Shown in pieces: positions 38,952-50,024 of a DNA stretch of 64,000 bases. The notes beneath the pieces were generated by a model that worked only from the letters and a program-made list of their open reading frames with translations, was not told where the DNA came from and searched no databases. Source of the DNA: Clostridiales bacterium (GTDB lineage Bacteria > Bacillota > Clostridia > Lachnospirales > CAG-274); assembly GCA_021204175.1 (NCBI GenBank), contig JAJPZT010000075.1, positions 35,123 through 99,122 of the forward strand, in the 5' to 3' direction. Position 1 is the first letter of the stretch. The number at the start of each line of letters is the position of its first letter. The position numbers were made by a program, and so were the translations under genes.

Positions 38952-39095
38952 TGGGGCAGAGCTTAAGCAGAGCCTATGTGCTCAGACTGTGTAAATAAAA
39001 TTAAGGGAGATTTTAAAGACGAAGGGGAGAAACGGTCTTTTATATATAATCCCACGAAAGGAGTGATGTTTAGAAAAAGAGGATTAAATGTCAAT

Positions 39096-39189
39096 CGCTG
39101 AAAACATTAGTTTTCAGCGAAAGAGGAGGGTCAACGGAGTGCAGTCTTGCTTTGGCGTTTACGCCGAAGCAAACGAACGAAGTTTGACC
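39096..39189 (+). repeat. intergenic structured repeat, family A, copy 2
   Basis: CGCTGAAAAC-ATTA-GTTTTCAGCG hairpin, a TGCTTTGGCG-TTTA-CGCCGAAGCA hairpin, and an AAGTTTGACC tail. Aligns with copies 1 and 3. Confidence 0.75.
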
Positions 39190-46323: not shown

Positions 46324-46429
46324 AAAAACGCGTACAGTACTGTTGACTTTTTTGAAAATGTGTGGTAATATAAAATCACAAAAGGGAATTGCTGTTTCAG
46401 CGATTAATGCCCCTTTAAATTACGTAGTT

Positions 46430-46473
46430 GAAAAACAACCGCCATAACTTTGCTAGGGTCAGGCGGTTGTTTT
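46430..46473 (+). terminator. bidirectional rho-independent terminator downstream of the pilus operon
   Basis: AAAAACAACCGCC-17 nt-GGCGGTTGTTTTT. Confidence 0.7.
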
Positions 46474-46603
46474 TATGATGTAAAGTGCTATGATTAACAA
46501 TGTTAAGAATAACAAGTCTTTACTATTCGCGTCACAGTTAGCTTCATTCGTTTGTTTCCGAACAAGTTCGAAAACAAAACTTATTTCGCAACTGCTCCTT
46601 ACT

Positions 46604-46702
46604 CGCTGAAAACCTTAGTTTTCAGCGAAAAAGGAAAACCCGCAAGCGATATCTTGCTTCGGTGTTTCATACCGAAGCAAATGAGCAAAGCGAGGTTTGA
46701 CG
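46604..46702 (+). repeat. intergenic structured repeat, family A, copy 3
   Basis: CGCTGAAAAC-CTTA-GTTTTCAGCG, TGCTTCGGT-GTTTCAT-ACCGAAGCA, and AATGAGCAAAGCGAGGTTTGACG. Confidence 0.75.
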
Positions 46703-47006
46703 TTGCACCCCCTTTCAAAATCGATTGGAAAAACAAACCTTCTTTCAATTTTGATTATGGGGCATTTAACCGCCGAATCGTGAGTAGACAACTCCCTTTT
46801 GCTTATAGATATTATAATGTAAAATGTGCGAAAATTCAAGAGCTTTTTGTAATAATTGAGAATATAATTTGACTGAAGAAAAGTTTTCAACGCTGTTATT
46901 GAAAGTTGTTCAATGGCATTTCTTGTCGGTTAAAAACACCTCTCAGCTTCACTGCGTTAAGCAGTTCCCCTCACAAGGAGAGCCTTTACTATTATTCATC
47001 CATCGC

Positions 47007-49205: not shown

Positions 49206-49456
49206 TTTAAATTTTCCTCCTTTTTTGGTTTGCCGAGGGCGAAAGCCGCCCCGGCAGAATTGGTTTTTGGTTTGGTTAGCCCCGATGACAGGTTACATTA
49301 AAGCGATAGGAGTTTTCAGAGCTTTTCGGGGCTTTTAAGCTTTAAACTCTCCCAAAGGCTTTGTTTGTTGATTTTTAGGCAGGGCTTTTCCTCTTAAGCC
49401 CTGTCAAAAGACCTTTTGCTTGTTCCACAGGCATAAATGTCTGTAAAATTAACTAT

Positions 49457-49485
49457 ATTATATCTCAAATTATATAAAATGTCAA
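49457..49485 (-). promoter_or_regulatory. sigma-A-type promoter of the Big_2 gene
   Basis: On the minus strand: TTGACA (49485-49480), a 17-nt spacer, then TATAAT (49462-49457). This implies a 5' leader of roughly 245 nt. Confidence 0.5.
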
Positions 49486-49564
49486 TAATGGCAGCAGATT
49501 TTTTTGTGCTGAATTTTGCAAAAAACATTTTCGCTTTTGATAGAAATTAAAATTGTTTTAGTCG

Positions 49565-49593
49565 TTGACATATTTTGACGGCTGTGTTAAACT
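49565..49593 (+). promoter_or_regulatory. extended -10 promoter of the small hydrophobic-peptide gene
   Basis: TTGACA (49565-49570), a 17-nt spacer ending in TGT, then TAAACT (49588-49593). Confidence 0.5.
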
Positions 49594-49745
49594 TACTTCA
49601 AGAACAATAAAAATGTTCCAATAAGACTGTTTTGTCTTGTCGCAAAAGGGAATGACTGGCAGTTGACGGTTCTCCTCACATGTTCCACGGTGTTATCTGA
49701 TGTGTCTTTCAGCGGCACAATACACTGCGGAAGGAGGTGGATGTT

Positions 49746-49844
49746 ATGATAGAAATAATCTATGATATTGATGTGTTAATCATATTACTCATCATTGTTA
49801 TAAGAGTTATTATACATATTATAACGAAAAAAGATAACCGTTAA
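49746..49844 (+). CDS. 32-aa hydrophobic peptide, candidate type I toxin (MIEIIYDIDVLIILLIIVIRVIIHIITKKDNR)
   Basis: A GGAGG SD (49733-49737) lies 8 nt upstream of the ATG. The peptide has one predicted TM helix and a charged C-terminal tail. It falls below the ORF-track length cut-off. Confidence 0.45.
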   Translation: MIEIIYDIDVLIILLIIVIRVIIHIITKKDNR

Positions 49845-49916
49845 GATTTCCACACCCAACGGTTATCTTATGATGACTAATGGTGAGGAGTAGCTGCTAA
49901 AGTTACTCCCTTTTGT
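49824..49916 (-). ncRNA. candidate antisense sRNA convergent with the toxin-like gene (antitoxin candidate)
   Basis: A minus-strand promoter reads TTGACA (49951-49946), 17 nt, TATTAT (49928-49923). The terminator hairpin AAGATAACCGTT/AACGGTTATCTT (49831-49869) has its T-run on the minus-strand side. The predicted RNA of about 90 nt overlaps the last codons and 3' UTR of the peptide gene. Confidence 0.4.
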
Positions 49917-49921
49917 GTTTT
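49887..49921 (+). terminator. terminator-like hairpin ending the peptide mRNA
   Basis: GGAGTA-11 nt-TACTCC followed by CTTTTGTGTTTT. Confidence 0.5.
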
Positions 49922-49995
49922 AATAATAACACACTTTACTCTGACTGTCAATAAAATAATTCATAAAATCATATTAATCAAAAGGGAAATTTTTG

Positions 49996-50024
49996 TTGCA
50001 ATTGACTTATGAATGATATATAAT
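49996..50024 (+). promoter_or_regulatory. sigma-A-type promoter of the c-di-GMP/phosphorelay operon
   Basis: TTGCAA (49996-50001), a 17-nt spacer, then TATAAT (50019-50024). Confidence 0.5.

Follow-up and report, generated by a model that had tools for sequence, protein, structure and literature searches.

A candidate type I toxin-antitoxin-like module with a predicted 5′-3′ closed mRNA and a 3′-overlapping antisense RNA gene in a Clostridia lineage

In a stretch of 64,000 nucleotides from a Clostridiales bacterium (GenBank assembly GCA_021204175.1, contig JAJPZT010000075.1; from here on, the window), we find a cassette at positions 49565-49954 that, judging from its sequence and from that of its relatives, is probably an autonomous type I toxin-antitoxin-like (TA) module of a family not described before. 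The presumed toxin is a 32-aa membrane peptide, encoded by an mRNA of ~320 nt that the plus strand would produce. The presumed antitoxin is an RNA of ~92 nt that would be transcribed from the minus strand, starting at a strong promoter at the opposite end of the cassette. A diverged paralogue with the same architecture is found ~3 kb away on the minus strand, at 46340-46839. We refer to the two as module A and module B.

The features of the locus, their conservation and covariation, the boundaries of the cassette, and its patchy distribution can be read directly from the sequences compared here. The two transcripts, the translation of the open reading frame (ORF), the toxicity of the peptide, and its neutralisation are what we infer. 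A sequence-only reading of this DNA had proposed a type I TA candidate with a structured leader, a hydrophobic ORF, and a 3′-overlapping antisense RNA. The comparative evidence presented below (the cassette, the coding pattern, the covariation, and the paralogue) supports that proposal.

A cassette bounded by two promoters

All the elements proposed by the sequence-only reading (the promoters, the Shine-Dalgarno (SD) sequence, the ORF, the terminators, and the hairpin) are present in the window sequence at the positions given here. The sense promoter, TTGACA-17-TAAACT with a TGn extended -10 box (49565-49593, plus strand), matches 10 of 12 positions in a consensus scan, and its predicted transcription start site is at ~49600. 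The antisense promoter, TTGACA-17-TATTAT with a TGTG extended -10 box (49951-49923, minus strand), matches 11 of 12. Promoter-like hexamers are common in this AT-rich spacer, with 8 observed vs. 4.6 expected, so the credibility of the two promoters rests on their conservation in relatives.

The most informative relative is contig L087 (GCA_965306305.1), which aligns to the window cassette (49565-49954 vs. L087 4155-4543) with 83% DNA identity. The two -35 boxes, sense and antisense, mark the ends of the homology, and there is none beyond them. The module in L087 is flanked by an rplU-rpmA-obg operon and by a probably truncated gene of the YafQ toxin family, a context unrelated to that of the window. 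In this comparison both promoters keep their hexamers and TG motifs with drifting spacers, and both hairpins keep their stems with changing loops. The sense hexamers are kept in L087 (TTGACA/TAGACT) and in a third relative, L003 (TTAACA/TAAACT), with diverged flanks. In all four sequences, modules A and B included, the antisense -35 box, TGTG, and -10 box do not vary, and again the spacer does.

The sense transcript is predicted to end at an intrinsic terminator (49887-49921, plus strand), whose 9-bp stem occupies 49887-49909, with a T-run after it. L087 has GA in place of AG here and keeps the pairing with UU. This terminator shares bases with the long-range helix described below, and the two compete.

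Outside the cassette, a perfect 12/12 sigma-70 promoter, TTGACA-17-TATAAT, is found at 49457-49485 on the minus strand, facing the Big_2 surface-protein gene. It would give that gene a 5′ untranslated region (UTR) of ~250 nt (49206-49450) with GC-rich hairpin-like segments.

The ORF and its coding pattern

The ORF (49746-49844, plus strand) encodes the 32-aa hydrophobic peptide MIEIIYDIDVLIILLIIVIRVIIHIITKKDNR, with an acidic N-terminus, one predicted transmembrane (TM) stretch, and a KKDNR tail. The SD sequence GGAGG (49733-49737, plus strand) is 8 nt upstream of the ATG, and it is kept in L087 at a spacing of 7 nt. The peptide has a grand average of hydropathy of 1.40, 62% of its residues are I, L, V, F, M, or A, and its isoelectric point (pI) is 6.5; the TM stretch was judged from composition and hydropathy. 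Small size, a TM segment, and a charged C-terminus are used as criteria for type I toxins (PMC6563280). The peptide has fewer than 60 aa, is hydrophobic, and combines a predicted TM segment with a charged/polar C-terminus.

A phmmer search of 1.84e9 representative proteins reports a single match to the peptide, P0124, an unnamed ORF of 33 aa encoded on L087 (91% identity, E = 7.5e-8). A word-indexed search of 5.8e9 proteins with a padded 40-aa query returns the same single match. Comparing the two ORFs at the nucleotide level, we observe five substitutions, two of them synonymous and three of them Val/Ile replacements; a sixth change makes the L087 ORF one codon longer. Of all possible transitions 45% are equally benign, and the chance of five out of five under random transitions is ~0.02. 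All other reading frames show stops or non-conservative changes between the two sequences. Over its first 54 nt the ORF does not differ at all between the two, and the SD sequence and the ATG are conserved. These comparisons support an ORF that evolves like a coding sequence. An alternative GTG start at 49737, which would give a 35-aa form, is rejected because a 1-nt deletion in L087 shifts it out of frame.

Could the ORF nevertheless be untranslated, and the locus consist of convergent structured non-coding RNAs, or of a cis-regulatory RNA such as a riboswitch or a thermosensor leader? The identity of those first 54 nt could be a constraint at the RNA level, and the z-scores of the folds presented below are very low. 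Moreover, when modules A and B are read by eye, their C-terminal codons appear to be in different frames across the homologous hairpin, which suggests that structure and not peptide sequence is constrained there. On the other hand, there is a strong SD sequence at conserved spacing and a conserved ATG. Both in A and in B, it is only in the frame of the ORF that all substitutions are synonymous or conservative, and the conserved open frame is hydrophobic in both. No Rfam family matches the locus. We consider an untranslated ORF quite improbable.

A diverged paralogue with a lost start codon

The type I TA reading gains from the existence of module B. A search for paralogous copies had been named as a check by the sequence-only reading, and module B was reached from a weak blastn match. 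Its promoter, TTGAAT-17-TATAAT, is found by consensus scan at 46839-46811 (minus strand). A 5′ element GCAAAAGGGA (46802-46793, minus strand) and a 3′ element UCCCUUUUGUG (46387-46377, minus strand) both also occur in A, and within the window they co-occur only at the A and B loci. The ORF of module B is again small and hydrophobic, with an SD-like GGGGG and with a hairpin across its stop codon. Its fold has a z-score of -11.4, with a 5′-3′ helix of ~35 bp. The antisense gene of module B spans 46343-46484 on the plus strand, with a promoter TTGACT-17-TAATAT with TG (46343-46371) and a predicted RNA of ~105 nt (46378-46484) made of two hairpins and a U-run.

The ORF of module B in the window is a remnant, ANSKDLLFLTLLIIALYIIKTTA (46459-46530, minus strand), in which the ATG is replaced by GCG. 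The intact version is found in a Eubacterium metagenome-assembled genome (MAG; L088) and in a Logan contig (L089), where module B is shorter and the ORF encodes MNNKDILYLTLVLIILYIIKTTA, 23 aa, behind the GGGGG SD sequence. The window remnant and the L088 ORF share 57 of 72 nt, with four synonymous and five conservative codon changes and no frameshift. The window copy of module B has lost exactly its start codon and retained its antisense gene.

What destroyed the start codon is a 174-nt structured repeat (46530-46703) inserted between the SD sequence and the ORF of module B. Other copies are found in the window at 8324-8497 and 39095-39182, and in contig L090 at 5702-5782. The repeat is bounded by ACGTC...GTGACG, and it folds into a terminal stem and three hairpins (-72 to -86 kcal/mol) whose sequences vary between copies and yet remain paired. 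It has no Rfam match. It could be a MITE- or REP-like element (miniature inverted-repeat transposable element or repetitive extragenic palindrome), or a structured RNA of a new type.

The predicted antisense RNA gene

The predicted antisense RNA of module A (~92 nt, 49825-49916, minus strand), the putative antitoxin, has full complementarity to the last six codons and to the 3′ UTR of the mRNA. It is predicted to fold into two hairpins joined by a 16-nt linker and followed by a U-run (z = -4.2). One of the hairpins is a perfect 12-bp stem over the stop codon of the ORF (49831-49842 / 49858-49869) with a 15-nt loop; its U6 on the minus strand makes it the antisense terminator. Relative to L087 the stem is identical and the 15-nt loop has diverged, and relative to module B the stem has four compensatory pairs. 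The loop is likely the site of first contact with the mRNA. Pairing between an antisense RNA and the toxin mRNA, as expected for type I, is present in silico, for a transcript that is predicted.

The antisense genes of A (window, L087) and B (window, L088) can be aligned with one another, -35 box through terminator, and in all four the U-run is on the correct strand. Using a structure that we specified ourselves, 95.8% of the cells in the hairpins of this four-sequence alignment pair, vs. 22-62% in slid controls, and 7 of 18 pairs are changed on both sides. A covariance model of the antisense RNA scores 96 bits at the window A locus; run over 1.04 Mb, the model found only the sequences it was trained on and L089, whose sequence in this region equals that of L088.

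A predicted self-silenced mRNA

The structural results in this section are fold predictions, for which shuffled sequences, background pairs, and the opposite strand served as controls. The mRNA of the window copy folds with -105 kcal/mol, compared with -68.6 ± 5.1 in shuffles (z = -7.25), and the L087 mRNA has z = -6.7 against mononucleotide shuffles. The 5′ UTR of ~146 nt (49600-49745, plus strand) includes hairpin 1 (49602-49618), hairpin 2 (49621-49640), the 5′ arm of a long-range helix, and hairpin 3 (49683-49732), which adjoins the SD sequence. In a consensus fold of three leaders, hairpin 1 shows a compensatory A-U to C-G change in L003, and hairpin 3 survives one-sided as well as double changes.

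The long-range helix joins the leader to the 3′ UTR. The sequence-only reading had pointed out that CTCCTCAC (49672-49679) is exactly complementary to GTGAGGAG (49883-49890). The complementarity is exact, and as a description of the pairing it was an understatement, as those 8 bp are part of an interrupted helix of 32 bp (helices of 11, 5, 8, and 8 bp). The 5′ arm (49641-49679, plus strand) contains the anti-SD UCUCCU (49671-49676) and CUCCUCAC, and the 3′ arm (49883-49917, plus strand) contains the SD-like GUGAGGAG. The duplex of the two arms in the window has -44.1 kcal/mol, compared with -12.5 ± 4.7 for 3000 background pairs. On the opposite strand the same duplex reaches only -33.6, a loss of 10.5 kcal/mol that agrees with the five G·U pairs in the arm helix of the window. 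The corresponding duplexes have -29.3 kcal/mol in L087 and -47.7 in module B, and across the three the opposite strand is weaker by 6-12 kcal/mol. The sequence in the middle of the helix differs between A and B.

A second layer of occlusion would act at the start codon. The AUG is predicted to pair with 49817-49826, near the end of the ORF, and wherever a modelled state contains this segment its unpaired probability is only 0.00-0.04, compared with 0.75 in a transcript ending at 49760, in which the segment has not been made yet. The L087 mRNA is predicted to form this helix too; there a G-to-A substitution replaces one U·G pair by U-A. As for the SD sequence, the sequence-only reading had raised its sequestration as an option. 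In the three-leader consensus fold the anti-SD UCUCCU does pair with the SD sequence, and while the transcript is nascent this pairing dominates, with a probability of 0.18 that the SD sequence is unpaired. Once the RNA is full-length, the anti-SD is instead paired to the 3′ GUGAGGAG within the 5′-3′ helix. By these predictions it is the start codon, more than the SD sequence, that is firmly sequestered, and the emphasis of that option needs to be changed accordingly. We do not claim a clean on/off toggle of the SD sequence, because blocking the 3′ arm in silico barely alters the predicted SD accessibility of the window copy (from 0.50 to 0.45).

SD/anti-SD pairing, 5′ stem-loops, a 3′ terminator, and a 5′-3′ interaction are the determinants listed by T1TAdb for type I toxin mRNAs (PMC8594479). 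All of these cis elements against premature translation are found in the modelled mRNA.

The loop of the stop-codon hairpin contains one more stretch complementary to the SD sequence, UCCAC..CC (49849-49857), with 49733-49741 as its partner in full-length folds. Between the window and L087 this loop has a single conserved block, TTCCAC, and in module B (L088) a C-rich loop stretch is also a predicted SD partner.

How would such a module work? The mRNA would be self-silenced, with the start codon paired to the end of the ORF and the SD sequence to the upstream anti-SD, and the 32-bp helix between the 5′ leader and the 3′ UTR would close it, like the tac/fbi lock of hok. The antisense RNA would dock through the 15-nt loop of its terminator hairpin, by analogy with bsrG/SR4 and txpA/RatA, and RNase III would then cleave the resulting duplex of ~90 bp. 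Since the antisense RNA would deprive the leader of the 3′ arm, it may also allow the anti-SD to return to the SD sequence.

The last step leads to a more specific and more tentative proposal. The 5′ end of the antisense RNA (ACAAAAGGGAGUAAC...CUCCUCAC) looks like the 5′ arm of the mRNA itself. The two have ...CAAAAGGGA...CUCCUCAC in common and would compete for one target, the 3′ UTR segment with the SD look-alike GUGAGGAG. It is conceivable, though on the whole we doubt it, that the antisense RNA is a molecular mimic of the 5′ arm, which evicts the leader arm and so gives the anti-SD back to an SD sequence more than 150 nt upstream. This would be a switch with three partners (anti-SD, SD, and 3′ SD-mimic), combining hok-style locking with bsrG-style 3′ control. 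In the fold predictions the triplet co-varies, being CUCCUC/GGAGG/GAGGAG in A and GCCCC/GGGGG/GGGGC in B, and in the fold of the L088 module B the GCCCC switches between the SD sequence (GGGGG) and the 3′ GGGGC.

Searches for known families

Searching with the peptide, we find only chance-level TM matches in Pfam (FeoB_associated with E = 0.47, DUF5385, and YxzE with E = 0.67), only YidC in NCBIfam (E = 0.06-0.16), and none in PHROGs and PDB sequences. The Fst/Ldr models give no match at E-values up to 10, and there is no significant profile match to Fst/Ldr, Hok/Gef, TisB, Ibs, ShoB, or other toxin families of Pfam and NCBIfam. The sequence-only reading had compared the locus with the txpA, bsrG, hok, and fst systems; the peptide is not detectably related to TxpA, BsrG, Hok, or Fst toxins by Pfam, NCBIfam, PHROGs, PDB, or phmmer. 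Rfam 15 reports nothing at gathering scores in the whole 64-kb window, and the best sub-threshold match at the locus is FuFi-1, with 17.5 bits vs. a gathering score of 59.6 (E = 0.27). By the tests run, peptide and RNA belong to no known toxin or RNA family, and literature searches did not find such a family described in gut Clostridia.

Plasmid and phage collections gave no blastn or tblastn match, and three DNA patterns had no matches in viral contigs. A two-row alignment of the peptide returned 329 matches in viral contigs, which we discarded as they are all chance 7-mers. A metagenome scan with a 20-mer of the leader found one locus, L086, which matches across those 20 bases only and is taken as chance.

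Distribution and genomic context

The window is identical to Logan contig L001. The sequence-only reading had remarked that there is no gene call at the locus, and the spacer is uncalled in L001 as well. Matching Logan contigs come from the runs SRR15221345, SRR15221343, and SRR15219653. Among named genomes, a Eubacterium sp. MAG (GCA_020859645.1; L003) comes closest, its RR-GGDEF protein being 92% identical to that of the window. The lineage is rare, as only three close relatives of this protein are found among 5.8e9 protein clusters. We followed synteny through relatives of the RR-GGDEF protein and of the sortase, which is informative only at protein identities of at least 80%.

In L003, the promoter and the leader are inverted and abut the same base upstream of the RR-GGDEF promoter; the contig ends at the SD sequence, without the ORF half of the module. 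L084 and L085, in the same 90% cluster of the RR-GGDEF protein, have no module, and L083 (80% identity) has hicBA at the position of the module. Contigs L090 and L091 have neither module A nor B, and the more distant relatives (L092-L096, loci at 50% identity) have no modules. This behaviour, together with the paralogue inactivated at its start codon, supports a TA-like element: in relatives it is absent, inverted, or replaced by hicBA. It also leads us to reject the possibility that the locus is the leader or attenuator of the RR-GGDEF operon, since the module is inverted in L003 and elsewhere in L087.

The site upstream of the RR-HD-GYP-GGDEF promoter is therefore occupied in several ways across the relatives: by the module in the window (~49951-49962), by the inverted module in L003 (1-200), by hicBA in L083 (721-1323), and by nothing in L084 (5733-6000) and L085. 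This suggests a hotspot of TA turnover or a possible inversion. Contigs also tend to end inside or at the edges of A and B (L003 at its position 1, L088 at position 8942, L002 at its position 1, which corresponds to window 50016, and the end of L087). These ends would fit multi-copy repeats or heterogeneity of orientation in those populations. The YafQ-family gene next to the L087 module (3425-3607, minus strand) is a 60-aa ORF whose match to the YafQ profile is limited to the C-terminal two-thirds (positions 32-87 of 88, E = 4.6e-22); it probably encodes a type II toxin that has been truncated. No Pfam family matches the adjoining 51-aa ORF.

The same observations could be taken to describe a mobile or invertible DNA element, MITE-like or carrying a promoter as a switch, that modulates the surface-protein gene or the RR-GGDEF operon, with the RNAs as by-products. 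Opposite orientations do abut the same base in the window and in L003, presence and absence alternate among close relatives, MAG contigs break within the modules, and there are weak AT-rich inverted repeats, AATTGTTTTAG (49551-49561) and TAAAATAATTC (49952-49962), with longer ones at 49516-49541 and 49977-50001. However, the promoters face inward and both transcripts are predicted to end at internal terminators, so little read-out into the neighbours is expected. The junctions, read by eye, show neither clear terminal inverted repeats nor a target-site duplication; for those copies that have gene calls, the calls include no neighbouring recombinase gene; and the homology with L087 stops at the -35 boxes. 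The evidence on orientation comes from two genomes only. We regard this explanation as very improbable.

Weighing the toxin-antitoxin reading

Returning to the TA module as our preferred reading, several observations weigh against it. The peptide matches no known toxin family, and its KKDNR tail is weakly basic, with a net pI of 6.5. The occlusion of the SD sequence is partial in the window copy (unpaired probability 0.45-0.59), and the middle of the 5′-3′ helix is weaker in L087, with one A·C mismatch. The covariation in the antisense hairpins is strand-neutral because the hairpins are DNA palindromes. Moreover, module A is present in only three lineages, one of them partial, and module B in two, so that the covariation rests on few independent events.

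Some of these points would be natural if the ORF were a gene for a small membrane protein that is not a toxin, regulatory or accessory, whose level is tuned by the cis-antisense RNA. The ORF, the antisense gene, and the structured mRNA fit such a gene equally well, as do the lack of a toxin family match and the modest net charge of the tail. Against it stands the autonomy of the cassette, which is found in varying contexts and orientations, is absent in close relatives, shares a site with hicBA, and in L087 neighbours a YafQ-like gene. One paralogue has lost exactly its start codon and kept its antisense gene. And the layered translational occlusion, together with the 5′-3′ lock, is typical of products that must stay off (PMC8594479, PMC9841398). 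We think a non-toxin role unlikely, even if it is the most serious of the alternatives considered.

Comparison with known type I systems

The closest layout is that of bsrG/SR4 and txpA/RatA from Bacillus subtilis prophages, which likewise have a convergent, 3′-overlapping antisense RNA against the mRNA of a small hydrophobic peptide, and in which each terminator is inside the region complementary to the other RNA. Unlike them, the locus has a 5′-3′ helix of 29-48 kcal/mol that uses the 3′ segment targeted by the antisense RNA, and the 5′ end of its antisense RNA mimics the 5′ arm of the mRNA. We know of no such arrangement for bsrG or txpA, a helix over the antisense target together with mimicry of the 5′ arm. 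There is also no similarity in peptide or RNA sequence to those systems. SR4 makes its first contact via the terminator loop, and its binding at the 3′ end extends the SD-sequestering helix far upstream (PMC3834814). One study reports that such type I toxins are silenced by RNase III (PMC3531473).

With hok/Sok of plasmid R1 and aapA1/IsoA1 of Helicobacter pylori the locus shares a toxin mRNA closed 5′ to 3′, with the SD sequence sequestered by complementary boxes. In hok, the tac/fbi stem prevents translation of the mRNA until its 3′ end is processed (PMC9841398; PMC8594479). Their antisense RNAs, in hok/Sok as in aapA1/IsoA1, overlap the 5′ leader or the SD region; here the antisense RNA is at the 3′ end. 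Regulation of the hok/Sok type is therefore not what we find, even though a 5′-3′ fold-back helix is predicted. In addition, the locus has no mok-like leader ORF, its peptide has no match to Hok or to any other Pfam family, and its host belongs to a Gram-positive Clostridia lineage.

By host, the nearest modules are those of Clostridioides difficile, CD2517.1/RCd8, CD2907.1/RCd9, and CD0956.2/RCd10, plus their prophage copies. These also have convergent overlapping genes in Clostridia, and unannotated small hydrophobic proteins with charged C-termini in accessory or mobile regions (PMC6563280). Their toxins differ in having 34-59 aa and lysine-rich tails, with no homology to other families, and our locus adjoins neither CRISPR arrays nor a recognisable prophage. 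The modules covered by a 2019 review of Clostridia are mainly those of C. difficile (PMC6563280).

Finally, Fst/RNA II of the pAD1 par locus, and Fst/Ldr more generally, have a TM peptide of ~30 aa with a polar or charged tail and 5′ structures that limit translation, and the RNAs of Fst/RNA II are convergent and share the terminator region. The locus lacks their direct-repeat interaction sites at the 5′ ends and matches no Fst/Ldr model. The resemblance to Fst is one of type only.

Significance

Type I TA modules are almost invisible to annotation, and the one presented here was not called even in the identical Logan contig. To our knowledge, few type I modules are known outside model Firmicutes and Proteobacteria. 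The locus provides a well-delimited candidate for a new family from uncultured gut/rumen-type Clostridia, with two diverged subfamilies, and with both intact and naturally inactivated copies available for comparison. Its RNA layout joins a predicted 5′-3′ lock with a 3′-overlapping putative antitoxin.

The general picture of the type I mechanism would be unchanged even if our reading is true: the family would be new, the kind is known. If it is true, a toxin family and a small RNA family would be added to T1TAdb and Rfam, respectively, and a compact post-transcriptional switch would become available for engineering. For this lineage, it would mean that TA modules of different types replace each other at the same spot of the genome, which may hold hicBA, the module, or nothing.

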